Part shown: piece by piece, positions 40,395 to 61,718 of the stretch
Layout of the letters: every line of letters begins with the position of its first letter
Position numbering within the stretch: position 1 is the first letter of the stretch
Assembly: GCA_964516435.1 (NCBI GenBank)
Contig: CAZEZP010000078.1
Coordinates: forward strand, 118,707-182,706
Length of the DNA: 64,000 nucleotides
Reading direction: 5' to 3'
Source: an uncultured Kofleriaceae bacterium
Lineage (GTDB): Bacteria > Myxococcota_A > Polyangia > HGW-17
Made by a program: the position numbers and the translations under genes
The notes under the pieces: generated by a model
What the model was told of the DNA's origin: nothing
The model's database searches: none
What the model saw: the letters and a program-made list of their open reading frames with translations, nothing else

Positions 40395-41552
40395 ATGTTT
40401 CCTTTTATTTATTACAATCCAGTTCGCATATTGTTTGGTCAAAATGCATTGGAAAAACTGGATGGGAAATGGCTGGGCGAAGGACCGGTCCTGGTGCTTT
40501 CCGCCGGCCGCTCGTTTGCGGAAAGCGGCGCGCGCGCGGCGGTGCTCGCAAAACTGGCCGGCCGGGATTTCGTGGAATTTCCGGGCATCCGGCCCAACCC
40601 GCACCTGGACCAGTTGCTCGATGCCGTGGCCCTCGTGCGCGAAAAGCGCGTCGGGTTCATCCTGGCGTGCGGCGGCGGCTCCGTCATCGACGCGGCCAAG
40701 TTCATCGCGGCCGCGGCCGTGCACGAGGGTTCGGATCCATGGGATCTGGTCATCGGCAAGGCCAAGATCCGCAATGCCCTGCCGCTGGGCGCCGTGCTCA
40801 CGCTGCCGGGCACGGGCTCCGAGCACAACGATGGCGCCGTGATTTCCCGCAGTTCCCCCACGGACAAGCAGGCTTTCCGCAATGAAAGGCTCTATCCGCG
40901 CTTCGCCGTGCTGGATCCCGCCTTCACGCTGAGCCTGCCCTGGCGGCAAACGGCCAACGGCATCGCGGACGCCTTCGTGCACGTGATGGAGCAGTACGCC
41001 ACGCGCCCGGATTTCGCGCCGCTGCAGAACCGTCTGGCCGAATCCATCCTGGCCACGCTGGTGGAGACGGCGCCGCTCGTGCGCGCCCGGCCGCAGGATC
41101 TGGCGGTGCGCGGGGAAATCATGTGGTGCGCAAGCCTGGCGCTCAACCGGCTCATCGGCTGCGGCGTGGCGCAGGATTGGACGACACACCTGATCGGCCA
41201 CGCGGTCACGGCCGTCACCGGCATGGATCACGCCCGCACACTCACGGCGATTCTGCCGCAACTGCTGCGCGACCGCCTGGAATCCAAGCGTGCACGCCTG
41301 GCGCAGATGGGCCGGCGCGTCTTTTCCATCGCCGAGGCCGACGACACCCGCGCCGCCTTGGCCTGCATCGAAGCCATCGAATCCTTCTTCCTTTCGCTGG
41401 ACATGCCGGTGCGCCTGCCTGCCGACGAATGCCCGCCCTCGTCTCTACCCGCCATTCTTGAGATCTGCTCGCGCTACCGCTTCGGCCTGGGCGAAAACCG
41501 CGACCTCTTCCTCCCCGACCTCTCCCGCATCCTCACCTCCAGCCTGCAGTAA
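40395..41552 (+). CDS. iron-containing alcohol dehydrogenase (YqhD/BdhA-like)
   Basis: Fe-ADH motifs GGGSVIDAAK, TLPGTGSE, and the His-rich metal site HLIGHAVTAVTGMDHA. Confidence 0.88.
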   Translation: MFPFIYYNPVRILFGQNALEKLDGKWLGEGPVLVLSAGRSFAESGARAAVLAKLAGRDFVEFPGIRPNPHLDQLLDAVALVREKRVGFILACGGGSVIDAAKFIAAAAVHEGSDPWDLVIGKAKIRNALPLGAVLTLPGTGSEHNDGAVISRSSPTDKQAFRNERLYPRFAVLDPAFTLSLPWRQTANGIADAFVHVMEQYATRPDFAPLQNRLAESILATLVETAPLVRARPQDLAVRGEIMWCASLALNRLIGCGVAQDWTTHLIGHAVTAVTGMDHARTLTAILPQLLRDRLESKRARLAQMGRRVFSIAEADDTRAALACIEAIESFFLSLDMPVRLPADECPPSSLPAILEICSRYRFGLGENRDLFLPDLSRILTSSLQ

Positions 41553-41646
41553 GGTCCAATACAGCCTGCAGTAAGACATAACTTGGCCCGGCCGGTGACG
41601 TTGCCCAACGGGTCCCCCAAATCCTCGCCTACAGTCTGCAGTAGGA
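41541..41646. repeat. three phased copies of CAGyCTGCAGTAgG (23-nt phase: offsets 0, 23, 92)
   Basis: Copies at 41541-41554 (overlapping the ADH stop), 41564-41577 and 41633-41646. Each contains the CTGCAG palindrome. Confidence 0.3.
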
Positions 41647-41738
41647 ATCGGAACCTTTGAAAAATTCTGCAATTTGTTGATTTTCCAATAAAAAAAGTTC
41701 TTGACAAAACATTTGGTTCTCTGTACAAAGGAAATGCC

Positions 41739-41831
41739 ATGACTTCATGGTCTGATTGTTTCCAGGTTCTACAAGAGGCCCTGCAGTATAAAGAATTGCC
41801 ACTTTTTCCATGGCATGAACCTAAGCAGTGA
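41739..41831 (+). CDS. candidate 30-aa small ORF in the AT-rich intergenic region
   Basis: AAAGGAAA Shine-Dalgarno 4-6 nt before the ATG. Peptide MTSWSDCFQVLQEALQYKELPLFPWHEPKQ. No homology recognised, so this is speculative. Confidence 0.2.
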   Translation: MTSWSDCFQVLQEALQYKELPLFPWHEPKQ

Positions 41832-42118
41832 AAATAGAGACACAAACAAAACAAAACAACATTACACAATTTTTTTCATTTTTTTTGCTCCTTGTTATTG
41901 TTTGAAAATTTCAAAAAAAACCGAACAAATCAACGATAGATAAAATCAAAACTTTGTAAATTAAAATTAATAAAAATGTATAGGTTTGTCAAGCCGGTTT
42001 TTTCATTAAAAATTTTTCAGCGTGAGAAACACGAATACCGGAACTTCTGTCAGATGCAGGAAAAACTTCCGTCTTTCAGCGAAGAAGACCATTTTGCGGT
42101 CTTCAGAAAGGATTGCTC

Positions 42119-43231
42119 ATGAAAACGATGAACGAACAGGAAATGCGCCGGCAATTTGAGGCCGAATACCAGAAAACCCGCCAGAAGAACTTCAAGCGTC
42201 CCAACATTCTGGTGATCGGCTATACGGGAGCCGGAAAAACATCCCTGATCCAGACGATCCTGGGCAATGACCTGGTGCCGGAAAGCAAGATCGGCAGCGG
42301 AAAGCCCGTCACCCAGGGATACGAATACTTCGAAAACGAACTGATTCGCCTCTGGGATTCCAAGGGCTTCGAACTCGGCCACACGGAAGCGGAGTTCATG
42401 GAGAACACGCGCCGCTTCCTGCGGGAGCGCCAGAACGATCCGGACGTGGACAATCACATCCACCTGATCTGGTATCTCATCCAGGGGCCTTCCGCCCGCG
42501 TCACGGATTGCGACCGCAGTCTGATCCAGAACATTCTCCCGAAAAACCGCACGCTCGTGGCGATCAGCAAGGTCGACATCACGCGTCCCCAGCAGGAAGC
42601 CGCCATCCGTGAAATCGTCGAATCCTGCGGAATTCCGGCCAGCCAGATCTTTGCGGTATCCGATGCGCAGGCGAGATCCATCGGCGTCAGGGAGTTGGTG
42701 GCGCGCTCGTATGAGATGCTTCCGGACGCCTACCGGGCCGCTTTCGTGGATGCGCAGATCGTGGACCGCGAGATGAAGATTGCCGAAATCCGAAGCCGCA
42801 AGGGCAAGGCTTCGGCCATAATCTCTACCGCCACGGCGGCCGCAGCGGCCATTGGCGCCACTCCCATCCCCGTTTCCGATGCACCGATCCTGATGGGCGT
42901 GCAGGTGAGTCTGATCGGTTCCCTGGCGGCCCTGTACGATTTGCCGAAAGAAGGACTGAAACAACTCGCCTATCCCCTGCTTCTTCGTATGGTCGGCATA
43001 TACACGGCTTCCAGTCTGCTGAAACTCTTTCCTTTTCTGGGTTCTGCGATCAACGCGGCCGTCGCGGGCACGCTCACCGGTGCCCTGGGCTGGTACGTCG
43101 CCAATAAGTTCGAGAAAGCCGCCATCGCCCGCATCGAATCGAACTCACAGTATTATATCGACAACATCGATTTCGATATCGATGAATTCATGAACTTCAA
43201 GAATCAATACGAAAAGGAGCAGGGCAGATGA
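42119..43231 (+). CDS. GTPase-domain protein with C-terminal membrane/DUF697-like region
   Basis: G1 GYTGAGKTS, G3 DSKG, G4 SKVD. The C-terminal hydrophobic Gly/Ala-rich segment resembles YcjF/DUF697. AAAGGA Shine-Dalgarno. Confidence 0.7.
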   Translation: MKTMNEQEMRRQFEAEYQKTRQKNFKRPNILVIGYTGAGKTSLIQTILGNDLVPESKIGSGKPVTQGYEYFENELIRLWDSKGFELGHTEAEFMENTRRFLRERQNDPDVDNHIHLIWYLIQGPSARVTDCDRSLIQNILPKNRTLVAISKVDITRPQQEAAIREIVESCGIPASQIFAVSDAQARSIGVRELVARSYEMLPDAYRAAFVDAQIVDREMKIAEIRSRKGKASAIISTATAAAAAIGATPIPVSDAPILMGVQVSLIGSLAALYDLPKEGLKQLAYPLLLRMVGIYTASSLLKLFPFLGSAINAAVAGTLTGALGWYVANKFEKAAIARIESNSQYYIDNIDFDIDEFMNFKNQYEKEQGR

Positions 43232-44250
43232 AACCCAACATTCTCGTATGTGGAAAGACGGGGTCCGGAAAAACCTCGCTCATACAGGCGATCACCGATG
43301 ACGGGACCGTTCCGGAAAGCGCCATCGGCCATGGTGCGCCCGCCACGCGGGGATTCCAGGTGTATTCGACCCCGGCTGCCAATTTCATCGATACGGAGGG
43401 CTTTGTGCCCGGGCAGTCCCTGGAAGAAATGGTCGAATTCATCCGTGCGGAAATGCGGCGCCGGCTGGCAAGCGACTCGCCCGAATTTCTGGTGCATTGC
43501 ATCTGGTTCTGTGTGGACGGCAGCGGCGCCCGCATCACGGATGCGGAAATGCAGGTGATTCGGCATTTTTCGTCGCGATGCCTCCTGGTCCTCACCAAGA
43601 TGGACCTGCTCGAGGGGAGTGACCGCGGCAGGAAACAACGGGAAGAACTGCATGCCGCGGCGCAATCCTGCCTGGATGCCTCCCGCATCGTGATCGTATC
43701 GGCGAAGGACAGGACGGGATTGAAAACGCTCGTTGAGCAATCGGAAAATCTGGCCCGGGAAACCATGCTGGGCGCGCAGGAGGAATTGCGCCGTTTCTGG
43801 CAGACCTGGGAAGGATATTTCCGGGAACGCCGCCAGCAGTGGCTGGCGCGTGCCGCACAACGGGCCGATGAAGCCATCAGATGGGCAGCCGGCCGGGCGG
43901 CGGCCATTGCCATCGTTCCCATTCCGCTGGCCGACGTGGGACCGCTGGTGCTCAATGAAATCTACATGATCCACCGGATTGGAAATGCATATGGCATCAG
44001 TGTCACGCAGTCCATGGTGGCCATGTTGCTGGGCGCCAGTGCGGCCAGCACTCTGGGAAAAATCCTGGCCAGTTTCCTGCCGGGCTTCAAGATCCCCATC
44101 GCCGCCGCCATCACCTACGGTCTGGGCAAGGGCGTCAAGGCGTATTTCGAATCCGGCATGGAACTCAGTCCGGAAGAACTGAAGATACTCGTCCAGGAAG
44201 AAACGGAAAAAGCCAGGAAAAATGATTTTCAACCCATTCGGGAAGAATGA
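43228..44250 (+). CDS. GTPase-domain protein, paralogue of the upstream gene
   Basis: G1 GKTGSGKTS, G3 DTEG, G4 TKMD, and a similar C-terminal DUF697-like region. ATGA overlap with the upstream paralogue. Confidence 0.7.
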   Translation: MKPNILVCGKTGSGKTSLIQAITDDGTVPESAIGHGAPATRGFQVYSTPAANFIDTEGFVPGQSLEEMVEFIRAEMRRRLASDSPEFLVHCIWFCVDGSGARITDAEMQVIRHFSSRCLLVLTKMDLLEGSDRGRKQREELHAAAQSCLDASRIVIVSAKDRTGLKTLVEQSENLARETMLGAQEELRRFWQTWEGYFRERRQQWLARAAQRADEAIRWAAGRAAAIAIVPIPLADVGPLVLNEIYMIHRIGNAYGISVTQSMVAMLLGASAASTLGKILASFLPGFKIPIAAAITYGLGKGVKAYFESGMELSPEELKILVQEETEKARKNDFQPIREE

Positions 44251-44346
44251 AATTTTGCTGTAGAGTTCCTGCTTTTTAATAATCTTCCAAAAAAATGGTT
44301 GTCTGATTTGAAAAGTTGTGAAAATACTCAGTCAAAGGGGTTTGTC

Positions 44347-46803
44347 ATGACACAATCAAAAAACATGGAAATCCTCCTTTTGTATAACAAAATTATCAAG
44401 CGGCTGGTTCGTTCTGGTCGCAACAAATATCCACACCCCTATTTAAAAAATTTGATTAAAGAAATAAAAATTTATGGATTGAATCTTGATCCACTTGTGG
44501 TGTGGATTCCTGATTCAGATTGTATTTTTAGATTGAAATTTCTCGTTATTTTTATTGGAAAATTATTTGATCTTTATAGAAAAAGCATAGAGTTGGATGC
44601 CTATGAAAAATTTGTAAGGTATATTGATTTTTTTGAAAATTTAAAAAAAGATTGTTTTTATCCATTAAAAAATATTCTGGATAAAGAAATAGAAGAGAGA
44701 AAAATAACCTTCAAAGAGTCTTTAGAAAAGAAAAAGAAACGTGAGAGAAAGAGTCAGATTCAAAACGGTCCAAAAGACAAAAATCCATTCAAAAGCAACC
44801 AAGCATTGCAGTCAGGTGAAAACCCAGAATCGAAACAACCGCGGAAATTGTTCTTGAAACCGCGGCCCATCAATGTGGGATTCCGGGAAAAACTCAATAA
44901 AATCATATCGATATACGTTGATGAATCCTGGCCGCATGAGGAAATTGCCGGAATTCTGGCTGGCATCGTATGGCTCGGAGAAAAACCGGATCCCCAGGTT
45001 CTGCCGATTCCTCCGCAGCATACTCGCGGAACTGACAATATGCGGCATTATCTCGAAAGACTCGATGCCTGCGACCGGGCCATTCCGTTTTTCGTGGAAT
45101 TCGAGCCGCCTCCGGAAATATCGCGCGGATTGGCCTATGAACAGATGGTGCATGAGACGCTTCTGGTGGTTTTGGGATGGCTGCTGCCGGAAAAACTGGA
45201 ACTGAAGGCTGGGGAAACCGTAGGGGTGAACGTCGTTTGCGAGGCGATTGCCGGATACGAGCATGGAACCGATCATACGCGGGAATTTCAGGGAATTCTG
45301 ACCCAGGCGGCCCGGCGCAACCCTTCCCTGTTCCAGAGGTGGCGGATCCAGAAATTCCAGTGGGTGCAAAAAATTGGAGGACTGCCAAATAAATTTTCGG
45401 ATTCCCAGATCGAGGAACAGGGATACCTGGCGTACGGGGATTTGCTGGCATACCTGGCGTTCCGCAACACCAATGACAATGCCGCCGCCGTGGCCAGACG
45501 AATTGGCTTCGACAGTTTTCCCAACCGGATGCGCATTTCCCCCGGGTTGCTCTCGACGCTGGAGTTTCTGCAGTCCCATCAGACTTTCCGTCCGGACGTG
45601 TTTCTGGATCAGATGGCGCCCAACCAGCATCTGCCCTTCCTGCAGGCGTTTTTCGACAATGTGCGGCAAGCGCTTGCACAGGACAAAAAAGCACGGCTTT
45701 CCCTGCTGGAGGAACTGGACCGGCGCTATCAGGAGAAAGTGCGCGATCTGCACGCGTTGTCCCGACAGTTTTCCCTCGTGCAGCGGGTGGTAGGCGAACT
45801 CTCCGAAGATGCGCCGCGACGTCTTCGCCTGCTGGACCTGGGAATCCGGCTGCAGCATGCCAACCATTTCGGAGATCCGGAAAAACTGGGAAACCTGGAG
45901 GCCAACTACGCGCAACTGCGTGAGATCGCCCTGGAAAACGGCGATGCCGACCTGGTGGCGCACGTGGATCTGAATCTGGCCGTCCGGGCCGCGGACCGTT
46001 TCGAGCCCGAGGAAGCCCTGTCGATCGTGGAGGAACTGCTCGAAGAGGAGCACCGCCTTTCCCTTCTTTTCAGGGGCCGGGCCCATTCGGCACGCGGCCA
46101 GTACCTTTCGATGATGGAAGACCATGAGGAAGCCCGCCGCGAGTTCGAACGGGCGATTTCGCTCTTCGAGCGGGCCGACCTGAGCCCCGGGGAGCGTCTC
46201 GGGGAACTCGATCAGACGGGCATTTACCGCGCGTTCGCGGCCATCGATGCCGAGGATCCGGATGCGGAAACGCTGGTCGCCGCCCTGATGCGACCTGGAG
46301 AACCGAACCTGTCGCTGGAGAACCAGTTTCGCCATCACCTGTATGTGCGCTGGCTGGATTCGCTCGACGAGTACGCGGAAAAACGCCGGGCATACATGGA
46401 AAACGTCACACGCGAAATCCTGCCGGATACGCACCCGTGGCAGTTGATCGCCATGTATCGCGGTCTTTTCGCCCTGGAGCAGGAAAAGGACGAAGATGCC
46501 ATTTTCTGGCTGCGCCAGGCCATCGACATCGCCAGCCAGGGAGCGGGAGGCAGCCATGGCGCCACCTTGCGCATGATGGCCGCCGTCATTGCCACGCTGG
46601 CCTGGGTGACCACGGAAGAAGAAGAATTCCACAGGCGTGCCCTGGTGCTTCTCGACGGTGAAGCGCCGAATCCCGTCCGGCTCGAGGACGTGCTTCCTGT
46701 TGTGCGTGAAAAAACCGGATTTCTGCGGGAGGTGCTCGAGCGATATCCGCCTGCCGATTCGCTGGACGATGTCCTTTCGGTATTGACATTCAACTACAGG
46801 TAG
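44347..46803 (+). CDS. large hypothetical protein with TPR-like helical C-terminal half
   Basis: AAAGGGG Shine-Dalgarno before MTQSKN; the ORF is open from 44299. The N-terminal 180 aa are K-rich and AT-rich, the rest GC-rich and helical-repeat-like. Confidence 0.5.
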   Translation: MTQSKNMEILLLYNKIIKRLVRSGRNKYPHPYLKNLIKEIKIYGLNLDPLVVWIPDSDCIFRLKFLVIFIGKLFDLYRKSIELDAYEKFVRYIDFFENLKKDCFYPLKNILDKEIEERKITFKESLEKKKKRERKSQIQNGPKDKNPFKSNQALQSGENPESKQPRKLFLKPRPINVGFREKLNKIISIYVDESWPHEEIAGILAGIVWLGEKPDPQVLPIPPQHTRGTDNMRHYLERLDACDRAIPFFVEFEPPPEISRGLAYEQMVHETLLVVLGWLLPEKLELKAGETVGVNVVCEAIAGYEHGTDHTREFQGILTQAARRNPSLFQRWRIQKFQWVQKIGGLPNKFSDSQIEEQGYLAYGDLLAYLAFRNTNDNAAAVARRIGFDSFPNRMRISPGLLSTLEFLQSHQTFRPDVFLDQMAPNQHLPFLQAFFDNVRQALAQDKKARLSLLEELDRRYQEKVRDLHALSRQFSLVQRVVGELSEDAPRRLRLLDLGIRLQHANHFGDPEKLGNLEANYAQLREIALENGDADLVAHVDLNLAVRAADRFEPEEALSIVEELLEEEHRLSLLFRGRAHSARGQYLSMMEDHEEARREFERAISLFERADLSPGERLGELDQTGIYRAFAAIDAEDPDAETLVAALMRPGEPNLSLENQFRHHLYVRWLDSLDEYAEKRRAYMENVTREILPDTHPWQLIAMYRGLFALEQEKDEDAIFWLRQAIDIASQGAGGSHGATLRMMAAVIATLAWVTTEEEEFHRRALVLLDGEAPNPVRLEDVLPVVREKTGFLREVLERYPPADSLDDVLSVLTFNYR

Positions 46804-47119
46804 TTTTTCAAGATTCAAGAAATTTTTCGAAATGAATGAAATAACCTTTTTTCGATTTCGATTTTTGTTGAAATCCCTGTGACTTCAAAGGCGAACATCG
46901 GTGGAACCCAACTTTCCTTTTGACCATCAGAACCAGAAAGCCCGTAAAAACGTGGATTTCACGGCATCCAGCGTGCTTCTCTGCACATTGGGTACAACAT
47001 GGACGGTTATACCGGAAGTTGCAGGCATGATGTGCAGGGAGATGTTTGGCTGAGTCGTCAGAAAAGCCCGGGCATTCCGTCCGCGAAACGGAAGTTCGGG
47101 AGAATCTTGGAGGCACGAA

Positions 47120-48331
47120 ATGAGCGGACGCAAGGATTACCCGGTGTATTCGAGCCAGTTGGAACAAGTGGTGGGCCGATTGCGCGGTCAGATGCAAAAC
47201 CAGCGGCAGGAACTGAAACGGCAGATGGATGCGAAGATTTCCAGCATGCAGAGCCAGATGCAGGGATATGTGAAACAGCGGGTGAATTTTTTGCATCAAA
47301 ACATCCAGCAGGTGGAAGCGAATTTTCAACGTGATCTGCAAAACATGCAAGGCAGATTGCAATCGTCCATAGATGCTGTACGGCGTCACGTGGATGCTTC
47401 CATTGGAAAGTTGCGCCAAGAACTGCGTCTCGAGCGTGAAAACAGGCAGAAAACTGCAGAAGAATGGATGCGGGTACAGGAGTTTCTGCTCACGGAGCTC
47501 GATCGGCTCCAGGCAGGCCGTTTTCGTCCGGTGGAAGCGCAGAAGCATGTGCAGATGCGGGAGTTGATGCAACAGAACATGGCCAGCGGGAATTTCGAAG
47601 CCGTCATTGGTCAGGTGCAGGCCCTCTACGTCGATTCCTTCGCCCTGCGCGCGGAACTGGAAATCGTCAACCAGCAGGCGGCGCAGATGGAAATGGAAAT
47701 CCGGCAGGGCATGGAGTTTCTTGCGCAGGCGCTCCAGAATCCGGTTTTGCGGCAGGAATACGGCACATCCGAAGGCGGGAAGGAACCGGTGGAAATCGAC
47801 CTGCGCTTCTGGGCCGAGGAAGCCTGGAAGGATTTGGAGTCGAGACAGGTCCAGTTGCAGGATGCCGTGCGGGACATGTCCCGGTTCGATATCGATGCGC
47901 TCCGGCAACTTCGCGAGAGCGTCGAAGCCACCTTGCAACTGCATGCGGAAGCGATGGAAGAAGGCTTGCGTCGCCATTTTCTGCACATAGCTAGCATGGA
48001 TCGGCAGGAAAGCATCGTCGAGGCGCTGGCACGCCAGGGCTTCGAGGTCATCGACAACTTCTTCGAGCAGGATGACGAGCGAAAAGCCAATGTACTGCTG
48101 CTGGAAAACGCCTCGGGAGAAAAGATCCTGGTGCGGGTGGTGCCCACCAGGGATGGAGAGAACATCAAGATCAGTTTCAGTTCGCTCAATCCCGTGACTC
48201 ATGGTTCCCGCATGCGGGCACTCAACCAGGCCATCGGCGTTCAGCCGAGGGAAGAACCCGGCTACGAGACACGGCCGGCGCCGCCCGAGGATTTCGATTT
48301 GGAGCGCTATCGCGTGAAACAGAAGGCATGA
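47120..48331 (+). CDS. Gln-rich coiled-coil protein
   Basis: GGAGG Shine-Dalgarno. Long heptad-repeat N-terminal two-thirds (MQNQRQELKRQMDAK...). No catalytic motifs. Confidence 0.55.
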   Translation: MSGRKDYPVYSSQLEQVVGRLRGQMQNQRQELKRQMDAKISSMQSQMQGYVKQRVNFLHQNIQQVEANFQRDLQNMQGRLQSSIDAVRRHVDASIGKLRQELRLERENRQKTAEEWMRVQEFLLTELDRLQAGRFRPVEAQKHVQMRELMQQNMASGNFEAVIGQVQALYVDSFALRAELEIVNQQAAQMEMEIRQGMEFLAQALQNPVLRQEYGTSEGGKEPVEIDLRFWAEEAWKDLESRQVQLQDAVRDMSRFDIDALRQLRESVEATLQLHAEAMEEGLRRHFLHIASMDRQESIVEALARQGFEVIDNFFEQDDERKANVLLLENASGEKILVRVVPTRDGENIKISFSSLNPVTHGSRMRALNQAIGVQPREEPGYETRPAPPEDFDLERYRVKQKA

Positions 48332-48903
48332 TCATGACTTTTTTGCGTGTGGCCGATTTTTGCCACAAAACCACGGCGTTCGGTCCGCAGCCCGCCTGTG
48401 TGCTGTGGCTGCAGGGCTGCACCCGCACCTGCCCGGGCTGCATCGCTCCGATGTGGCAGGATCCGGCCGGCGGTCAGGAGCATTCCGTGGCAAAGGTGCA
48501 TTCCTGGATCGAGCAGTCTGATATGCCCGTGCTGGTGGTCTCGGGGGGAGAGCCCCTGGATCAATGGCAAGGATTGCATGAACTCATGCGCACAACGTCC
48601 CGGGACGCACGAAGCGCCATTTTATATACGGGATACACCTATACGGAATTATTGCAGCATTCAGGCTTTCAATCGCTCATTCCATTTTTTGATTTGCTCA
48701 TTTGCGGCCCATACATCGAGGAATTGAACGATTCGAAAGGCCTTCGGGGTTCTTCCAACCAGGAGTTGATATTCCGGACGGCGCGCTTCGAGGCATGGCG
48801 GGAATGGTTCGTTTCCGGTGCGCGCACGCTGGAAGTGGAAATCCGCTCCGATTTCGTGCGCATGACGGGGATTCCCCCGGCAGGCATGCACCTGAATTTC
48901 TGA
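48328..48903 (+). CDS. NrdG-family radical-SAM activating enzyme homologue (anaerobic RNR activase-like), orphan
   Basis: CxxxCxxC cluster motif LQGCTRTCPGC, SAM-binding SGGEPL, and NrdG-like C-terminal blocks YTGYTYTELL and LRGSSNQELIF. Compare E. coli NrdG WTGYKLDELN and WRGSSNQVV. Confidence 0.75.
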   Translation: MIMTFLRVADFCHKTTAFGPQPACVLWLQGCTRTCPGCIAPMWQDPAGGQEHSVAKVHSWIEQSDMPVLVVSGGEPLDQWQGLHELMRTTSRDARSAILYTGYTYTELLQHSGFQSLIPFFDLLICGPYIEELNDSKGLRGSSNQELIFRTARFEAWREWFVSGARTLEVEIRSDFVRMTGIPPAGMHLNF

Positions 48904-48919
48904 GAGGCGGTGAGATTCG

Positions 48920-51469
48920 ATGGCACAGTCCCAGGAACAGGCATTTGCGCTATTGAGTGATTATTCCCGGCGCATCTTTTTGTTCAACGGAAAAACCAAG
49001 GATTATTTCCTCATGCCCGATGGGCGTTACATGCGCTTTGAATTGGTACTTCATGAATATCTCAAAAAAGAATTGAATTATGATATTGTCGCTTTTGTTG
49101 ATCATAATGGGCTCTTTTTCTGGGATGAAGAATCTGCCAGAGAAGCCATGCAGGCCAAAAGCCGCCGGGAGAAACCGCGCCCGGCATCCATTCGCGGCCT
49201 CATGAAACGCCCGAAAGGAATCACGACGCGTCCGCCAGCGGAAGCGGAAGCGCCAGCCCCCGTGCAGTGGCGCTATGATTTTGCGGGCGATGCGCGCATG
49301 CTGCTGCCGCAGGTGATGGGCATCCTCCAGCGGGACATTTCGGCGGCCGTGGTGGTGCTGGAGCGCAGCCTGCTGTTCAACATCCACCCGCAGGATCCCG
49401 TTTTTTTCAATTTTCGCGGCTTCCTGTGCGATACGATGACGTTTTTCCCGCACGATAACCGCAATCTCATGATATTTGCAGAAAACACCGAAAACATTCA
49501 GGACCTGGCGCGCCAGTTTGGAGAAATGGGTCTGGGAGACCTGTTTTTTACCCGGGAAAACAGCCAGAGCGACGGCAAGGCTGGATTCGCCTACATCGGT
49601 CCGCCGGGAAGAGAGGAATGCCGGCGGCTTTTTTCCTGGTTCCGGGTGGTCAAACAGCGGCCTGTCCACCTGCCGGATGCCGATGCCATGGGGGTGCTGG
49701 CAGCGTCGTGGTCAAAAGAAAAAAATCAAGGTCTGCATGTTCTAGCGGCGAGACTGGAAAAGGTTCGGGAGTTTCGCCTGGATTCAGTTGAGGAAAAATT
49801 GGAGATGAAGGCCGAAAAGAGCGCGCAGGAATTGCTCGACGACCTGGTAGGCATGGAGGAAGTCAAGAAACAGGTTCTGTTGCAACTGGCCACCCTGAAC
49901 CGGGAGGAAGCGAAAAAGGAGGATGCCAAAAAAGAAGAGATGTTCTGGCCGAAAAGGCTGGGCGCACAGAAAACCACCGGAACCCACCCTTACCTGGATC
50001 ATTTCGCATTGCTTGGCAATCCGGGAACCGGCAAGACCACTGTGGCCCGCATCATCGGAAAACTTTTGCAGGAACGGGGGCTTCTGGAAACGGGGCATTT
50101 CATCGGCGTGACACGGGGAGACCTGGTGGGGGAATACGTGGGAAGCACGGCCGTGAAGACCCGCCAGGTGCTGGAGCGGGCCATGGGAGGCGTGCTCTTC
50201 ATCGATGAGGCGTACTCCCTGTACAAAGGTGAGAGCGATACATTCGGGCAGGAGTGCATCGATACGCTCATCGAGGCGATGGAGACGCAGCGCGGGCGTT
50301 TCGTGATGATCCTGGCCGGCTATCCCAACGAGATGCGCAGACTGATCGCCTCCAATCCCGGCTTCAGGAGGCGCGTAAAGGAAATCGTGATTCCGGATTA
50401 TACGGATGCGCAACTGGCTGAAATCATGCGCCGGATGCTGGCGAAGGATGCCTGCGAATCCGACGTTCGGGAAAACCTCGATTTTTATGTGAAGAATCTG
50501 CTGGCCAACCGGACGGTGAGGAACGACTGGGGCAATGCAGGCGAAATCCGCCGGATTTGCGAAGATGCCCGCAAACGATGCGATGCCCGCAGGGGGAAGG
50601 AACTGTGTGCCCAGGATTTCGAGCATCCGGAATATTTCCAGCCGACTTCGGTCAGGACGGAAACGACGCTCGATGACCTGATTGGCATGGCGTCTCTCAA
50701 GCAGCATCTGAAGAAACTGTTCGTGAGTTTCAAGAGCAAGCAGAATCGGGGGCAGAAGGTGGACGTGGGGCATTATTTCTTCATTGGCAATCCGGGAACG
50801 GGGAAAACCACGGTCGCCCAGATTCTGGCCCGGGAACTGTATGCGCGCGGACTTTTGCGGACACCACGCTGTCTGGAGCATACGGCAATGGACTTCATTG
50901 GCCGGTACGTGGGGGAAACCGAAAACAGGACCCGGGAGATTTTCGAAAAGGCTTTGGGCGGCGTGCTGTTCATCGACGAGGCCCACCAGTTGGTGGATGC
51001 CACCCCCAGAGGTGAAACGTATTCCTATGGACAAGCGGTTCTCAAGACACTGGTGCCCTTGATGGAAAATCACCGGCATGAAATTTCGGTCGTCTTTGCA
51101 GGCTATCCGCAGCAGATGAAGCGTTTGCTGGAATACGACCCCGGGATGAAGAGTCGCATTAAAAGTACAATTCGATTTGAAGATTATAGTAATGAAGAAC
51201 TTCTTCAAATATTTTTAATACAATTTAAAAAAGAATATCCAGACATGTCTTTCCCCCTGGAAATGCAGGCGCCGCTGGCGGATTTCTTTGGAAAAGTGCG
51301 TGCCCTGGAAAGGGAGAAGTTCGGCAATGCACGCATGGTGCGCAATTTCGTGGGAAAACTGGTGGACACTTTGGAGTCGCGCTGGAACGAAGAGTCCGAA
51401 AGTGAAAAAAACATCTCAATGGCAGATCTGGAAAACGCCATGCAGGAATACATGCACCAGAATATGTGA
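48920..51469 (+). CDS. tandem AAA+ ATPase of the CbbX/SpoVK family
   Basis: Two modules, each with GNPGTGKTTVA[RQ]I Walker A, ...GGVLFIDEA[YH] Walker B and sensor regions. The first module is near-identical to the CbbX consensus. 849 aa. Confidence 0.8.
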   Translation: MAQSQEQAFALLSDYSRRIFLFNGKTKDYFLMPDGRYMRFELVLHEYLKKELNYDIVAFVDHNGLFFWDEESAREAMQAKSRREKPRPASIRGLMKRPKGITTRPPAEAEAPAPVQWRYDFAGDARMLLPQVMGILQRDISAAVVVLERSLLFNIHPQDPVFFNFRGFLCDTMTFFPHDNRNLMIFAENTENIQDLARQFGEMGLGDLFFTRENSQSDGKAGFAYIGPPGREECRRLFSWFRVVKQRPVHLPDADAMGVLAASWSKEKNQGLHVLAARLEKVREFRLDSVEEKLEMKAEKSAQELLDDLVGMEEVKKQVLLQLATLNREEAKKEDAKKEEMFWPKRLGAQKTTGTHPYLDHFALLGNPGTGKTTVARIIGKLLQERGLLETGHFIGVTRGDLVGEYVGSTAVKTRQVLERAMGGVLFIDEAYSLYKGESDTFGQECIDTLIEAMETQRGRFVMILAGYPNEMRRLIASNPGFRRRVKEIVIPDYTDAQLAEIMRRMLAKDACESDVRENLDFYVKNLLANRTVRNDWGNAGEIRRICEDARKRCDARRGKELCAQDFEHPEYFQPTSVRTETTLDDLIGMASLKQHLKKLFVSFKSKQNRGQKVDVGHYFFIGNPGTGKTTVAQILARELYARGLLRTPRCLEHTAMDFIGRYVGETENRTREIFEKALGGVLFIDEAHQLVDATPRGETYSYGQAVLKTLVPLMENHRHEISVVFAGYPQQMKRLLEYDPGMKSRIKSTIRFEDYSNEELLQIFLIQFKKEYPDMSFPLEMQAPLADFFGKVRALEREKFGNARMVRNFVGKLVDTLESRWNEESESEKNISMADLENAMQEYMHQNM

Positions 51470-51478
51470 AGGTGAATC

Positions 51479-52072
51479 ATGTCGGATCCGAAACAGGCCT
51501 TTTTTCAGGAAATACGGAAAAGAATCCGCAACCATCCGGAAGGTGGCGTGCTGGAGGTCATGGATGCCATCCTGAAACTTTTCAACATGCTTCCGCCGAG
51601 TCATTCCTGGGGGCAATCCGATGCCTGGATGGAAAAGTTCCAGAAATTGATCGTAGCCATCGATTTTTGCGTGCATTCGGCGGGAATGGAAACGGAAAAG
51701 CAGAAAATCGCGCAGTTGCAGGAAAAGATTGAAAAAAACCAGAATGAGAAAAAAGCACTTGAAGATACGATTCAAAATTTGGAAAATACGCTGGGATTGG
51801 AAAACAAGACGCTGGCCGATTTGCGCGCACTCCTGGAGCAATTGCAGAGCATCGAATTCTTTTTGTCAGCAAACGAGTCCGTGCGCGTCTTGAGAGATCG
51901 GCTCAAGGACGACCAGCAGTTTTGCGTTTCGCTTCCGCAATGGCGCAAGGAGTATGAGAAAGACATGGAAAAAGCCCTGCAGCATCTCACGGAAGCCGAA
52001 AAGATCGTGCAAGTCATCAGCGAGGAATTCGAGCGGCATACCCGGGAAATCCAGGAACGCAACGGAAGGTAA
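51479..52072 (+). CDS. hypothetical coiled-coil protein
   Basis: AAGGTGA Shine-Dalgarno. 197 aa with a central KQKIAQLQEKIEKNQNEKKALEDTIQNLEN heptad region. Confidence 0.5.
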   Translation: MSDPKQAFFQEIRKRIRNHPEGGVLEVMDAILKLFNMLPPSHSWGQSDAWMEKFQKLIVAIDFCVHSAGMETEKQKIAQLQEKIEKNQNEKKALEDTIQNLENTLGLENKTLADLRALLEQLQSIEFFLSANESVRVLRDRLKDDQQFCVSLPQWRKEYEKDMEKALQHLTEAEKIVQVISEEFERHTREIQERNGR

Positions 52073-52081
52073 GGAGAAAGA

Positions 52082-53854
52082 ATGCTATTCGAGATGAAAG
52101 AACTCAGTGCTGAAGAATTTGAAGAGCGGGTCGCCTTCTGGAGTGAGCGGCTGAATAGCAATCGGGTGAAATGTACGCCCGGCCATATGCGCTATTACAT
52201 CGCCGCGCCCCGGCAATCGGAACTGGTGCTGGTCCAGAATGTGGCGGGTTTTTCCCAATGTTTTCTGGAAAAAGCAGATTTTTCACCCCTTTCCAGGATT
52301 CTTCCCACGGGAAAGGAACTCATTCGCCGGCTACTCGATGGGGATTCCGAAGAACGCCGGATTCTGGAAACGCTGGCGGATGCGCTGGATCAACTCGGTT
52401 CATACAACCGGCATGTTTTCTGGCTGGATCCCGATCTGATCCTGTGGGATGGCAGCCGCATCCTGTTTCATCCTTTCGCGTGGCCCCAGATGTTCGTTTC
52501 CGACGAAACCGTCGTCAATCCGGAAATCCGGAACCAGTATGGCTACAAGATGGCCGTAAAAAATCCACGGATTGCCGCAGGCCAGATCGACAGCGACCTG
52601 GAGCGGGTCGCCTTCCTGTATTTTTTGCTGGAGTTGCTTTTCCCCGAGGTTCCATTCCGGAAAATGGACCGGACCATGATCCCCAAATTCCTCAAGTATT
52701 TTTCGAGGGCAGGTGTGTTTATGAAAAAATTTTTGTCGCGCTGGTTTGGAAAATCGCAAAATGAAAAGATTGCGGAAAAACCGCGGGAGATGCTTCAGGG
52801 CATCATCGGCGCGGCCAAGAACAATCCGCTGGCGCCACTTCCCTATCAGGAAGCGCGATATGAATGCGAGTATGATGTGCGCCGCGGGAGACACAAGAAG
52901 GGAACGCACAGCGAAGACGAATATGAAGTGATTGAATCCGGAAAGCACGAGAAGAGCCGGTATTTCATCTTCGTGAGCGATGGCGTGAGCACGGCGGATT
53001 TCGGGGATGGGGACGGCATGGTCCGTTTCCTGCGCGATCAGGTGCAAAATCAGAAGGAACAGATTGCATCCTTCCTGGATTCATTGCCCACGGATGATGC
53101 AAGGAAGTTTGCGGAAGAAAGCCGCTCTTTTCTGCTTGATTTGTGCCGCAAATTGAATGAGGCCGCTATTGAAAAACTCAATGAGCAACTGAAAAAGGAA
53201 AGCAAATCGGCCGAAGACATCCAGCATCCCATGAGCGCCACGCTCGTGCTGGGCGTGGTGTGCGGCAACTGGGTGCATTTCGTTCACATGGGCGACAGCG
53301 AGGTGATTTTCGTGCGGGGTGCAGATGCGTACATTCTGAATACGCCGCACAACGGGCTGCGCGACCGGCTTCTCGAAGAAGCGGCCCATGCGCAGGAAAT
53401 CCGCTCCCGCGTCGATGGGGACGAAGAACTGACGCTCGTCATTCCGGAATTTTCCATCGAGCAGGGGCGATTCGTCTCCAGTCTGGATGCCAATGCCCTG
53501 GAAAGTGTTTCCCTGTATCTGCAGAAGGGGGATTTGCTGCTGTTCTGCACGGATGGCCTGCTCAGTTGTCTGGGACACAATCCCGCCCAGCGGGAGGATG
53601 CCCTTCCGGAGTTGCTTCGCATCCTGCGGGAAACCGATGCGCTTCCTTTCTATGACCGGATCCAGAAGTTGCTCGATGAAGCCAAGAAAACGGGGGAAGA
53701 CGACGTGGCCGTGGTGGGACTGAAGAACATGGGACTGCCCGTTGCAACTTTGGCATCGGGGCAGGAAAAGGAAAGGGAGAAGCCAGGTTCCAGGGAAAAG
53801 GAATCCAGTATTTCTATTACAATCAGGGATTCAAAAAAAGAACGTAAATTATAA
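52082..53854 (+). CDS. PP2C-family Ser/Thr phosphatase with about 270-aa N-terminal extension
   Basis: PPM motifs FVSDGVSTADFGDGDG, HMGDSEVIF, FCTDGLLS and DDVAVVGL in the C-terminal half. TAAGGAGA Shine-Dalgarno. Confidence 0.75.
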   Translation: MLFEMKELSAEEFEERVAFWSERLNSNRVKCTPGHMRYYIAAPRQSELVLVQNVAGFSQCFLEKADFSPLSRILPTGKELIRRLLDGDSEERRILETLADALDQLGSYNRHVFWLDPDLILWDGSRILFHPFAWPQMFVSDETVVNPEIRNQYGYKMAVKNPRIAAGQIDSDLERVAFLYFLLELLFPEVPFRKMDRTMIPKFLKYFSRAGVFMKKFLSRWFGKSQNEKIAEKPREMLQGIIGAAKNNPLAPLPYQEARYECEYDVRRGRHKKGTHSEDEYEVIESGKHEKSRYFIFVSDGVSTADFGDGDGMVRFLRDQVQNQKEQIASFLDSLPTDDARKFAEESRSFLLDLCRKLNEAAIEKLNEQLKKESKSAEDIQHPMSATLVLGVVCGNWVHFVHMGDSEVIFVRGADAYILNTPHNGLRDRLLEEAAHAQEIRSRVDGDEELTLVIPEFSIEQGRFVSSLDANALESVSLYLQKGDLLLFCTDGLLSCLGHNPAQREDALPELLRILRETDALPFYDRIQKLLDEAKKTGEDDVAVVGLKNMGLPVATLASGQEKEREKPGSREKESSISITIRDSKKERKL

Positions 53855-53877
53855 TAAATATAAAGGAGATTTGAAGC

Positions 53878-55182
53878 ATGTCGGAAGGAAAAGTCATTCT
53901 CACCATGTATTCCAACCCGGATTACCTTCCGGGCAACCAGGTAGACCAGGTCATCGAGGGGGTGCTGGTCGTGGAGCCGCCGACGTCCAGCCAGAACGTC
54001 CAGACGGGCACGGATCTCGTGCTGCTGCTCGACTCCAGCGGTTCCATGAATGAAGCCTACTATGACGTGGGCATGTCCAAGCGCCAGAAGGTGGTGGAAG
54101 CCGTCCGTTCGCTTCTGCCGCTCATGTCGGATCTGGATACGCTGACATTCATCAGTTTCAATACAGGCGCTACTTTGTTGCTGGATCATGAGCGCAGGTC
54201 GGCATCCACCCGCATCGAAACCTGCCTGCAGGAATACATGGGCCAGGATGGCGGCACCAATTTCGAAGCCGCCATGCAGGTAGCCAGCACGGTGTGCCAG
54301 AACCGGGTCAACCCCGTTACCCGGCTCATTTTTTTGACGGATGGGCACGCATATGGCGGCAACCCCCAGCGGGCCGTTGAAATTGCCGGGCGTATGGCCA
54401 GTCAGGGAATCATGATCGATTCCATGGGCATTGGCGCCGAATTCAATTTCGATTACATGCGTCAGTTTTCCGCCCTCTGTGCTGGCATCACGGAAAACCT
54501 CGCCCGGGAGGCCAATCCGCAGGTGATATTCCGCAACATCCTGCGTTCCGGCCAGCGCACGATAGCTGCCAACCTCCAGTTGCAGGTGTTTTTCGGGAAT
54601 CACGTGCGCGACGTGGAAATCTACCAGTGCGCGCCCGAAAAGCGCTCGCTGTCCGCCTCTTCCACCACGAGTGCCCATGGGACGTTCTACCAGATGCTCA
54701 TCGGGGATTTGTCCATGGGAAATCCCAAGCAGTTCGTCATGCGCTGCCATGCGGACCTGCCGGATGCCTCCTATGTCAAACTGGCGGATATCCTGGTTAC
54801 CTACCGGGATCCCGCGACCGGCAACCCGGGAAAGATGGAAATCGCCTGGACGATCAACCTGTCGAAAGACGACAAAAACGTGCGCTATGACAGTTTCGTG
54901 CGCGACTGCCTGCGGGAAGTGGAACTGCTCATTGGTCTGGAACAGGCCTTGCGCCTCTACCAGAATGGCAACATCGCCGAGTGCCTGAAGAAAATGGACG
55001 GTCTGATCAAGGATGCCCGGAGCCTGGGCGACGTGGAGCAGGAGCGCATGCTGAGAAAGGCTTTTGAAAAGGTTCAGCGCAACGAGAATCTTTCCCAGGA
55101 GGAACTCAACCGGATGCTACATCGCTCCTCGCGATCGAGCCGGGTGCGCACGACACAGCCGAAGAATACATCCACGTTGTAA
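53878..55182 (+). CDS. von Willebrand factor type A (vWA) domain protein
   Basis: MIDAS motif DLVLLLDSSGSM, plus GGTNF and IFLTDGHAYGG. AAAGGAG Shine-Dalgarno. Confidence 0.75.
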   Translation: MSEGKVILTMYSNPDYLPGNQVDQVIEGVLVVEPPTSSQNVQTGTDLVLLLDSSGSMNEAYYDVGMSKRQKVVEAVRSLLPLMSDLDTLTFISFNTGATLLLDHERRSASTRIETCLQEYMGQDGGTNFEAAMQVASTVCQNRVNPVTRLIFLTDGHAYGGNPQRAVEIAGRMASQGIMIDSMGIGAEFNFDYMRQFSALCAGITENLAREANPQVIFRNILRSGQRTIAANLQLQVFFGNHVRDVEIYQCAPEKRSLSASSTTSAHGTFYQMLIGDLSMGNPKQFVMRCHADLPDASYVKLADILVTYRDPATGNPGKMEIAWTINLSKDDKNVRYDSFVRDCLREVELLIGLEQALRLYQNGNIAECLKKMDGLIKDARSLGDVEQERMLRKAFEKVQRNENLSQEELNRMLHRSSRSSRVRTTQPKNTSTL

Positions 55183-55194
55183 TCGAGGTGTTGC

Positions 55195-56250
55195 ATGACG
55201 CAGAAAGCCTTTCTTTGTGCGGGCACTTCATCGAACAACTATTTATTCAACCCATTTTATCCAGAAACGGACGTAGAATGGACCATTCCGGAGAACTTTC
55301 CGGAAGAAAACGTTCAACTTCACAAGGATGAGAACGGACATCTGCACATCCAGTGCAAGGAAGCCGATGATGTCTATGTTTTCATCTGCAACCGGGGGGA
55401 CATGAAACAGGAAATCGAGAGCCGGTTTGTACGGTTGCCGGAAGTCCTGGAGATTCCCGTGAATGGTTCCTGGCAGTTCCCGCTTTTGGACGGTGCCGTT
55501 TCTCTGCAATGCGAGATGCTGCCGGAAATCGGTCGTCTGGAGCGTTCGCAGGCCGGAAATGAATGGAAACTGATGCCTTTGCAAGAAGGATATGCCACAT
55601 GCACCTGCGTATGGGGTGAAGAAAAAAAATATAAAGTGCAGTCCCAGTTCCGGCTGCGTATCATCCAGGTATCCACGTACTTCGCTCCGTCCGAATCGAG
55701 CCGTCCCGGAATTTTGGCTTCCCCGGACAATGCGAGGGATTCCCTTTCGGCGGCCGCAGATTCTCGGCAAACGGGGCAGGAAGCATCCGGAAAAACCGGG
55801 ATACAGGCGCAGGATTCCGATTCTCCGGCGGATTCCCTGGCATCCCCCAATTCTTTATCGGGAAGTTGGACGGGAAGCATCGATGCCGTTCCAGAGTTGC
55901 GCGGCCCCGTTTTTCTGGTCGTGCGGAAAAAAAATGGAACGGAAGAAATTTCGCGCCATTCCGTGGGATTGGGAAAGAGTCTCGTCGTGGGTAGGGCTTC
56001 CGGATCGGCGCCGCTGGCCGTGGATGTGGATCTCGCTCCCCATCTTTCCAGGGAGAACCGGGACCTGTGTTCCCGCAACCAGTTGCGCGTATTCATTTCC
56101 AACAACCGGGTATACGTGAAAAACATTGGAAGCGTGGATGTCGAACTGGATGACGGAAAACTGCTGCCGGCCGGACAGGGGATGTTTCTGGCCGTTGGCC
56201 GACAGTTGGAAATCGCAGGAGAGATTGCGCTGACGCTGCAGGAAGGATGA
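55195..56250 (+). CDS. FHA-domain protein
   Basis: C-terminal FHA fold (GKSLVVGRASGS...SRNQLRVFISNNRVYVKNIGSVDVELDDGKL). N-terminal 200 aa unknown, with a Ser-rich linker. Confidence 0.7.
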   Translation: MTQKAFLCAGTSSNNYLFNPFYPETDVEWTIPENFPEENVQLHKDENGHLHIQCKEADDVYVFICNRGDMKQEIESRFVRLPEVLEIPVNGSWQFPLLDGAVSLQCEMLPEIGRLERSQAGNEWKLMPLQEGYATCTCVWGEEKKYKVQSQFRLRIIQVSTYFAPSESSRPGILASPDNARDSLSAAADSRQTGQEASGKTGIQAQDSDSPADSLASPNSLSGSWTGSIDAVPELRGPVFLVVRKKNGTEEISRHSVGLGKSLVVGRASGSAPLAVDVDLAPHLSRENRDLCSRNQLRVFISNNRVYVKNIGSVDVELDDGKLLPAGQGMFLAVGRQLEIAGEIALTLQEG

Positions 56251-56251
56251 C

Positions 56252-58582: not shown

Positions 58583-60024
58583 ACTCGCCGGTTTATGAGG
58601 AAACCCGGAAAAAGGCGCTCGAGGCGCTCCGGAACAAGGACTACGAGTCGTCATTTCTGCTGCACCTCCAGCAACTCGAATGGTTGCGGCGGGAACCGGT
58701 GGACGTGGAGAATCTCCAGGAACGCCAGCGGGTGCTCAACAACCTGCTGGTGAGCCTGCATGGCCGCATCCAGCGCGGGCAGGCGGAAAATCCACGGGAA
58801 TCCTGCCGGTTGTTCCAGGATTTTCTGAAGGAATACCTGGACGTATCCGGAAACATTCCATTCGAACAGCGCCGCCGGGGAGCCGATAATGTCATTTCGG
58901 ACCTCTACCGCCATGCCCTGCGCGTGACGCTGCTGCAGGTAACGGAAGACGATGGCATTTCCCTGCAGGAACAGGAAAGGCAACTCAAGTGGCATGTGCG
59001 GGATATTTACGACCGGTTCTTCCAGGTATTTTGCCGTGATGGCGCTTTCCCATATGAAATTTTGCTCGATCCATCTATGGATATGTTGTATTTTGAACGT
59101 CGAAATATTTTGCGTAAAGGTCATTTGCAGCAAAATTATTATAATACAATCTGGATGGCAGAGGTGTTCCTGCAATTTTTCTCGGGAGAGCATATGGCAC
59201 GGGTGCGCTCCGAGATCCTGCTGCTGTGCAGTGATGTGAGCCAGTTTCTGCCGCCGCCCCCTGAACATTCCCGGATGCGGTTTGCCGCCGAAATGCAGGC
59301 GATTTCGTGGCTGGACAAAAGTCTGGCGGAATATCCGGAAAACCGGGTGGCACGCGAACGCCGCCAGCAACTGGTTTCGTTCCTCACGGCGGCCGAGCAG
59401 ATCAACCGTTTCCGCCATGATGTCGTTTCCAAGATCGAATCCATCCGGGGAATCCTGGGGAAACTGCAGGAAAGGAATCCCGATGGGGAAAGCCGGCAGC
59501 AACTGCAGGCCGCCATGGTCCACGTGCGCACCATTCTGGGTTCGTTCCGCCTGACCATGCGCGAGCGACCCTCTTTGCGGGGCGTAGCGTCCATGGAATC
59601 GTTCCTGGAACGCTTCGCGGATGCAGATGTCACGGCCAAACTGCAGGGAACTCCGCGGCCGGTGGTGACGGACGAGGAATATCTGGCTCTCGTGGTGCAG
59701 AACCTGGTGCAAAATGCCCGGGAGGCCTATGCCCGGAACCGGATTTCCGGCGGGCAGGTGCATGTCGTGTTCGATTACGACCGTCTGGCGCTGGAAGTTC
59801 GGGATTGGGCCGGCGGCATTCCGGAGGAATTGCGTGCCAATGACAAATTGTTTGAGCCCTATGCCTCTTCCAAGGGCATCCAGCAGAATGCTGGTCTTGG
59901 TCTGGCCAATGTGCGGGAAGCCTGCCGGCTGCTGGAAGCTTCGATACGGTACGAAATCCTGAAACAGGATGGCCATACAGGTACGGTTTTCATTATCACA
60001 CTGAAAGAACCAGAAAGGGATTGA
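58579..60024 (+). CDS. GHKL/histidine-kinase-like ATPase (cytoplasmic, degenerate H-box)
   Basis: C-terminal HATPase_c N-box LVQNLVQNAREA, G1 VRDWAGGIP and G2 GLGLA. FRHDVVSKIESIRG is a possible divergent phosphoacceptor box. ATGA overlap with the kinase gene. Confidence 0.7.
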   Translation: MNSPVYEETRKKALEALRNKDYESSFLLHLQQLEWLRREPVDVENLQERQRVLNNLLVSLHGRIQRGQAENPRESCRLFQDFLKEYLDVSGNIPFEQRRRGADNVISDLYRHALRVTLLQVTEDDGISLQEQERQLKWHVRDIYDRFFQVFCRDGAFPYEILLDPSMDMLYFERRNILRKGHLQQNYYNTIWMAEVFLQFFSGEHMARVRSEILLLCSDVSQFLPPPPEHSRMRFAAEMQAISWLDKSLAEYPENRVARERRQQLVSFLTAAEQINRFRHDVVSKIESIRGILGKLQERNPDGESRQQLQAAMVHVRTILGSFRLTMRERPSLRGVASMESFLERFADADVTAKLQGTPRPVVTDEEYLALVVQNLVQNAREAYARNRISGGQVHVVFDYDRLALEVRDWAGGIPEELRANDKLFEPYASSKGIQQNAGLGLANVREACRLLEASIRYEILKQDGHTGTVFIITLKEPERD

Positions 60025-60027
60025 AAC

Positions 60028-61702: not shown

Positions 61703-61718
61703 TGAGAAAGGAGCATCC

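Follow-up and report, generated by a model that had tools for sequence, protein, structure and literature searches.

Two overlapping genes of an uncultured Kofleriaceae bacterium, here termed A and B, raise the question of what a tandem pair of small GTPases with hydrophobic tails might do, and whether it acts alone or with the genes that follow it. The pair occupies positions 42119-44250 of the stretch of DNA analysed, which is 64,000 nucleotides (nt) long (referred to as the window; GenBank assembly GCA_964516435.1, contig CAZEZP010000078.1, positions 118,707 to 182,706 of the forward strand). The reading favoured here, to which we give a probability of roughly 0.6, is that A and B form a self-contained accessory cassette whose product is a membrane-associated GTPase heterodimer belonging to the uncharacterised 'GTP-binding DUF697' family.

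The gene pair

The two genes were taken from a six-frame list of open reading frames (ORFs), and lengths are given in amino acids (aa).

42119-43231, forward strand: gene A, ATG start, 370 aa, with an N-terminal helix, a TRAFAC G domain (about aa 27-200; G1 at aa 34-42, G3 at 80-83, G4 at 150-153) and a helical DUF697-type tail (about aa 228-341)
43228-44250, forward strand: gene B, 340 aa, with a TRAFAC G domain (about aa 2-180; G1 at aa 9-17, G3 at 55-58, G4 at 123-126), a long helix (aa 183-227) and a predicted DUF697 helical-hairpin tail (about aa 213-308)
43214-43231, forward strand: coupling junction, with AAGGAG at 43214-43219, an 8-nt spacer and then the ATG of B

Comparison of the two proteins using BLASTP yielded 29% identity over 319 aa (E 5e-31) in an alignment that extends from the P-loop through the whole of the hydrophobic tails, a similarity far beyond chance by which A and B are judged to be paralogues; the DNA encoding their P-loop regions shows 75% identity across 60 nt. 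The motifs read from the sequence and alignments are G1 GYTGAGKTS, G3 DSKG and G4 SKVD in A, and G1 GKTGSGKTS, G3 DTEG and G4 TKMD in B, and G1-G4 are conserved in orthologue alignments of 66 A-type and 70 B-type sequences. An earlier note on this DNA had described two paralogous small GTPases of shared G1/G3/G4 architecture with DUF697-like hydrophobic tails and had proposed hidden Markov model searches, which agree with that description: MMR_HSR1 scored above the Pfam cut-off in both proteins (26.3 and 25.7 bits against 21.9) and DUF697 (PF05128) above it in B (33.9 against 27.7 bits) and below it in A (21.6 bits), while the YcjF and dynamin models remained below their cut-offs. The A tail aligns with the B tail in BLASTP, and PF05128 is carried by many A orthologues. 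Weak sub-threshold Pfam matches to Septin, RsgA, PduV-EutP and Dynamin_N were also recorded in A and B.

The start codon of B (43228-43230) overlaps the TGA stop codon of A (43229-43231), so that the 4-nt overlap reported earlier is real (ATGA), and together with the AAGGAG upstream of B this arrangement suits the translational coupling that had been proposed. The ATG of A is itself preceded, 6 nt upstream, by a Shine-Dalgarno-like AAAGGA (42107-42112), and an alternative TTG start lies at 42113.

Two side observations concern the motifs. The G4 of B orthologues mostly reads TK[SA]E, ending in Glu in 54 of 70 sequences and in Asp in 15 of 70, with Asp126 in the window; a Glu at this position is unusual for a guanine-specificity motif. 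Invariant or nearly invariant Cys residues lie beside the P-loop and in the WYCIDG strand (B C8, B C95 and A C131), and position 33 of A, which is Cys in 61 of the 66 A-type sequences, is Ile in the window.

Orthologues, gene order and fusions

Database searches returned at least 173 relatives with B and at least 264 with A, the best of them about 50-54% identical. Orthologues derive mainly from metagenome genomes of Lentisphaeria/Victivallales and also from Planctomycetota, Kiritimatiellia, Verrucomicrobia, Fusobacteriaceae and Oligoflexia, and an exhaustive search of 1.84 billion representatives identified 129 clusters at E <= 1e-30 and 1228 at E <= 1e-10. A scan restricted to one genome per species, with the window's own genome outside the scanned set, provided 76 loci. 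A-type regions are 37-53% identical to A and about 23-32% identical to B, and the reverse holds for B-type regions. A and B are anciently diverged, each with its own orthologue set, and the duplication is therefore older than the spread of the pair.

Among the species-representative loci, 45 have a B orthologue, and the gene arrangement was counted over these. A lies immediately upstream of B in 35 of these, the order is B then A in one and A, A, B, B in another, B stands alone in three, and the remaining five are uninformative owing to a contig edge. Across several phyla the two genes remain neighbours in the order A-B, with junctions that are tight, overlapping or fused in frame: in 17 of the 35 A-B loci the junction is in frame and free of stop codons, so that one ORF of about 800-945 aa is read, its two P-loops lying 330-350 residues from each other. 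The fusion of Victivallis vadensis (locus L010, 8570-11011), for example, reads ...ETYQQGAR-MKPNILVCGKTG... across the junction and retains the internal AAGGAG, and two-domain proteins were also found as database entries (P0241, 833 aa; P0242, 685 aa). Fusion of adjacent genes is a classical sign that their products act in a complex, and the adjacency of A and B together with their fusions therefore argues for an A-B complex. In the fused forms the A tail is much less hydrophobic and the B tail is still hydrophobic; since the B G domain follows the A tail in these proteins, both ends of the A tail should be cytoplasmic.

More distant GTPase-DUF697 genes also occur in tandem, in Deferribacterales, Acetobacter, Gluconobacter and Succinivibrio. 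The domain architecture is already catalogued, and the heteropair, its fusions and the regulator linkage presented below are apparently undescribed. In a Fusobacteriaceae metagenome-assembled genome (L004/L034, 225-8219), A, A, a fragment, B and B stand in a row, which suggests that the family has been amplified and has diversified locally.

The G domain and the DUF697 tail

A profile built from 18 B-type sequences was run against all sequences in the PDB, and septins were returned at the top (SEPT3, E 2.6e-7, followed by SEPT9, SEPT2 and SEPT7), with YsxC/EngB and Der next. The best septin alignment covers the septin-typical segment following G3, in which WYCIDGSGxR is aligned with HCCLYFISPTGHSLR. 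AlphaFold2 models of both proteins were confident (predicted local distance difference test, pLDDT, of 88.8 for B and 87.5 for A) and a Foldseek search of the PDB matched them to GIMAP2/7, IRG proteins, EngB and septins at E of about 1e-6, the G domain alone being matched. The nearest profile and fold matches of the A/B G domain appear to be septins, Toc34/159 and AIG1/GIMAP, and also IRG. The Pfam Septin cut-off was missed (25.0 and 20.8 bits against 26.2) and neither window protein has a Pfam match to AIG1. In published phylogenies, septins cluster with Toc and AIG1/GIMAP, and YihA/EngB serves as the outgroup. As judged from these profiles and models, the G domain appears to sit in an EngB/septin/GIMAP-like neighbourhood of the TRAFAC GTPases, with membership of the septin clade itself not established. 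Septin-like GTPases are membrane-associated and undergo heterotypic pairing of paralogues, and by analogy the A/B pair would be expected to do likewise.

The tails of A and B are rich in Gly, Ala and Pro and helical in character. After the G domain the models predict a long helix (B 183-227) and then four to five shorter helices separated by Pro/Gly-rich breaks, at which a PxPxxD motif is conserved (B P231-P233-D236; A P249-P251-D254); Foldseek matched no solved structure in the PDB to this tail. Kyte-Doolittle maxima over 19 residues are moderate (1.99 for B, 1.64 for A) and fall in helix-break-helix segments, and invariant polar residues lie inside the B tail (R223, D236, N243, E244, K278 and K288 among them). 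With this moderate hydrophobicity and these polar residues, membrane association of the tails is considered likely, though unproven, and helical hairpins or re-entrant segments are more likely than classical single-pass anchors. Of the membrane tails proposed in the earlier note, the hydrophobic DUF697-like character therefore stands, and the tethering itself, given the conserved charges, is plausible rather than proven.

Relationship to known GTPase families

Membership of established families was assessed using the NCBIfam models, of which the Der/EngA, YsxC/EngB, HflX, Era and HydF equivalogs gave 15-27 bits against cut-offs of 124-326. Rejected on this basis were EngA/Der (27.4 against 306.7 bits), EngB/YsxC (25.6 against 124.45), HflX (22.9 against 216.75) and Era (22.7 against 237), as well as the slr1306 family model (20.4 against 490). 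Membership of the YcjF family was likewise ruled out (TIGR01620, 19.7 against 160 bits), and no YcjX-like match was present among the NCBIfam matches of A and B. With scores so far under the cut-offs, the pair is neither a well-known housekeeping GTPase nor YcjX/YcjF, the assignments that the earlier note had named as the ones that would count against it.

These scores also bear on the function suggested by some database names, namely that A and B are housekeeping GTPases of ribosome assembly, which we regard as very improbable indeed. MMR_HSR1 does score above its cut-off, and several orthologues are named '50S ribosome-binding GTPase' in NCBI, but this name is merely the generic title of Pfam MMR_HSR1. 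The Der/EngA, YsxC/EngB, Era and HflX scores argue against such a role, as do the hydrophobic DUF697 tail, found in place of a KH or other RNA-binding domain, and the patchy, accessory distribution, with just 129 clusters at E <= 1e-30 among the 1.84 billion representatives.

A and B instead show the features of the GTPase-DUF697 family (MMR_HSR1 plus PF05128), having the G motifs, a C-terminal DUF697 and named full-length orthologues; the latter, at 40-53% identity over 94-100% of the length, are entitled 'GTP-binding DUF697 domain-containing protein', 'DUF697 domain-containing protein' or '50S ribosome-binding GTPase'. The catalogued proteins share the domain architecture and length of A and B. 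They are entered as single proteins with no assigned function, whereas A and B represent a conserved heteropair that is often fused.

The earlier note had likened the pair to the dynamin-like anti-phage systems LeoA/LeoBC, while remarking that A and B are much smaller. The size difference is confirmed (340-370 against more than 550 aa) and the likeness is one of analogy only. Tandem or fused pairs of membrane-acting GTPases, as in LeoA/LeoBC (Eleos) and DynA, are comparable to A/B in arrangement, but A and B have neither stalk nor paddle and carry a different membrane element. For DynA, membrane binding is required for phage defence (PMC12998192). Membership of LeoA/LeoBC was rejected, as the PADLOC matches are at the level of the P-loop only, extending over about 90 residues at profile positions of about 40-150 (E 4e-5 to 2e-4) in models of about 560-600 positions that include stalk and paddle; orthologues and one fused form behaved in the same way. 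Pfam Dynamin_N reached 17.9 bits against a cut-off of 27, and the fold of A and B is nearer to EngB and septins than to bacterial dynamin.

Genomic context of relatives and proposed function

Recurrent partners of the pair were sought by clustering 628 neighbouring ORFs. Only one was widely recurrent, an opposite-strand gene that encodes about 330 aa, lies some 1-2 kb upstream of A and is present in 19 of the 37 loci with enough upstream sequence. Its product is a WYL plus WCX protein (PADLOC WYL models, E 1e-25), which by its sequence has the architecture of BrxR, and for BrxR-family repressors a location beside known defence systems has been reported in 48-61% of cases (PMC9122601). In Lentisphaeria cassettes, a 126-aa ORF additionally runs 4 nt into the start of A, and A itself is extended by 125 aa at its N-terminus; neither element has a Pfam or PADLOC match (L003 6898-9999, L005, L006, L015, L027 and others). 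The window contains none of the WYL gene, the 126-aa ORF or the A extension and thus represents a minimal core, like the loci of Kiritimatiellia, Planctomycetota, Verrucomicrobia and Oligoflexia.

The other neighbours are variable and include a UvrD/NERD helicase, AbiEii, an MjaI-type restriction enzyme with methyltransferases, integrases, a KAP NTPase, PDC-S01 and PDC-S20 candidates, DUF7379 lipase-like hydrolases and DUF445, together with ordinary metabolic genes. The defence-type genes among them form a qualitative list with no background rate and are suggestive only. A distant single-gene relative (MMR_HSR1 plus DUF697), about 23-25% identical to B and 30% to A, is carried by mobilisable ColE1-type plasmids of about 5 kb in E. 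coli and Klebsiella, on which it is the only annotated gene besides those for replication and mobilisation. On one of these (L086, NZ_CP142048.1, 2083-3258) it encodes 391 aa (MMR_HSR1 E 8.5e-12, DUF697 E 1e-6), and similar plasmids of about 5 kb occur in E. coli, Klebsiella, Leclercia and Raoultella; this gene offers an easy experimental entry point to the GTPase-DUF697 superfamily. A phage origin was not indicated, as tblastn found no match in 50,697 phage records, and the BFVD returned giant-virus G domains only.

Septins, Toc and GIMAP proteins are GTPases activated by nucleotide-dependent dimerisation. By analogy with these, the cytoplasmic G domains of A and B, made in equal amounts as coupled translation would favour, may pair across their nucleotide sites, and GTP binding and hydrolysis would then change how two DUF697 helical hairpins pack within or against the inner membrane, with membrane remodelling, clustering or permeabilisation as the outcome. 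The cassette, apparently acquired by horizontal transfer, would act as a conflict or stress effector, in relatives switched on by the divergent BrxR-type WYL repressor.

Among possible roles, anti-phage defence or abortive infection is tentatively ranked first, at less than even odds, because of the WYL/BrxR linkage, the patchy distribution across phyla, the variable islands and the plasmid cargo. A more specific version, in which a septin/GIMAP-like heterodimer senses infection and the DUF697 hairpins depolarise or remodel the inner membrane as a two-component anti-phage or anti-plasmid system, is rather unlikely as a whole; if true, the immune GTPases by which eukaryotes target membranes (GIMAP, IRG and septin cages) would have in this pair a prokaryotic counterpart.

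Repair or maintenance of the envelope under stress is ranked second and is also doubtful, though well short of negligible. The pair would then be either a GTPase-fused analogue of YcjX/YcjF or a DynA-like module sealing damaged membranes. The rank follows from the parallel with YcjX/YcjF, an NTPase and DUF697 duo with links to heat-shock and Psp loci: ycjX is almost invariably next to ycjF, the two often lie beside psp operons, and ycjX has been reported to have a sigma-32 (heat-shock) promoter (PMC3041696). DUF697 is common to A, B and YcjF (Pfam match, with a weak match to TIGR01620), and the combination of NTPase and DUF697 therefore recurs, as two genes or as one; in YcjX/YcjF the P-loop NTPase and the DUF697 membrane protein are separate, whereas in A/B the NTPase is fused to DUF697 and duplicated. 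Genes for DUF445 membrane proteins and for lipase-like alpha/beta-hydrolases, found near some relatives (seven loci each), would also fit an envelope role. However, the YcjF model was matched at only 19.7 of the 160 bits needed and no YcjX-like protein is present, and accessory conflict genes are a better match than a core stress regulon for the sporadic distribution, the variable neighbourhoods, the WYL gene and the small plasmids. The annotated flanks showed neither psp genes nor tyrR.

Several points weigh against the favoured reading of a heterodimeric, membrane-associated GTPase cassette and the conflict role attached to it. The A-B heterodimer is one that we infer from gene order and fusions, and B without A in three loci means that pairing is not obligatory. 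The tails are moderately hydrophobic and carry conserved Arg, Asp, Asn, Glu and Lys within their hydrophobic helices, so that insertion is a prediction only. The link to defence is guilt by association with no background control; the WYL gene is absent from the window, and no PADLOC-DB 2.0.0 defence model matched beyond the P-loop (LeoA, LeoBC, mad8 and PDC-M16B, E 4e-5 to 1.4e-3). No functional study of the GTPase-DUF697 family was found in the literature.

What is new here is that one branch of the GTPase-DUF697 proteins is a conserved heteropair of paralogues, repeatedly turned into a two-headed protein, and that the pair travels as an independent cassette in variable genome regions, often under a BrxR-type WYL repressor. 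A functional assignment could give DUF697 a role and inform on YcjF, and could show whether septin-class GTPases were acting on membranes in bacterial conflict or stress before their eukaryotic immune use; if the pair merely serves membrane housekeeping, the gain is a modest improvement of annotation.

Flanking DNA and the downstream cluster

The pair is bordered by AT-rich DNA on both sides and followed by a co-directional gene cluster.

41553-42118, forward strand: AT-rich spacer before A (GC content 27-43% at 41600-42100), presumed promoter and leader of the pair
44251-44800, no strand: AT-rich stretch after B, closing the cassette and overlapping the start of the next ORF
44299-62897, forward strand: co-directional cluster downstream of the pair, comprising the following
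44299-46803, forward strand: TPR protein, 834 aa, next ORF after B and outside the GTPase module
within the cluster: coiled-coil protein, 403 aa
48328-48903, forward strand: NrdG-like small radical SAM protein (Fer4_12, E 3e-22)
48920-51469, forward strand: tandem CbbX/SpoVK/EccA-like AAA+ protein
after the tandem AAA+ protein: coiled-coil protein, 197 aa
52082-53854, forward strand: PP2C protein
53878-55182, forward strand: vWA protein
after the vWA protein: protein with no assigned domain, 351 aa
56252-58582, forward strand: Ser/Thr kinase
last genes of the cluster, forward strand: HATPase_c (histidine) kinase, response regulator and PIN protein

The earlier note had the pair open this island, and an alternative to a self-contained cassette is accordingly that A and B are the first operonic component of the downstream genes and work with them. 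The genes share one strand, the gap between the B stop codon and the next ORF is just 48 nt if that ORF takes its longest form, and the region from 42.1 to 62.9 kb is lower in GC than the DNA upstream. Co-occurrence in other genomes, a check suggested in that note, was examined using tblastn with 14 window proteins (the upstream Fe-alcohol dehydrogenase and the downstream cluster proteins, two of them with no recognised domain) against 85 loci. At E <= 1e-5, matches were confined to L001, a contig of the same organism, apart from a single generic AAA+ match in L021, so that none of the other downstream proteins accompanies the pair in the 84 other loci. In the opposite direction, homologues of the TPR protein (41-51% identity) adjoin NACHT/SLFN-AlbA genes, vWA plus PP2C genes, or HATPase_c plus Fer4_12 radical SAM genes, and no A or B homologue was found beside those examined. 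As co-occurrence fails in both directions, the pair is taken to be a self-contained cassette separate from the adjacent cluster; the joint operon, from which the AT-rich stretch of 550 bp between the two units also detracts, is largely refuted by these tests and is left with a slight probability.

The cluster itself is probably conflict-related and may represent a separate signalling or conflict system that is as yet uncharacterised. Its vWA, PP2C and kinase trio resembles the TerY-P triad in domain composition, and PADLOC returned kinase-level matches only (PD-T4-6, E 9e-21).

The GC content of the pair is 55-62% and falls to 26-33% over 44200-44800, following B. Ahead of A, the AT-rich region of about 500 bp is where the earlier note had placed it, and contains a sigma-70-like match (TTGTCA-16-AAAAAT, 41986-42013); no Rfam match was found in this leader at E <= 1.

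Two further observations concern the borders. In L001, which is an independent metagenome assembly (SRR6186653), an indel (window 44571-44593 against L001 3099-3122) splits the 834-aa TPR ORF into 74 and 736 aa, reflecting either a frameshift in one assembly or a gene that is polymorphic or a pseudogene. Upstream of A, a 14-nt direct repeat, CAGCCTGCAGTAAG, is present in three copies at 41540, 41562 and 41632, the last of them 86% identical; the first covers the stop codon of the Fe-alcohol-dehydrogenase gene (40395-41552), and the repeats look like a duplicated gene end or an att-like scar at the exact point of the fall in GC from about 65% to about 30%.

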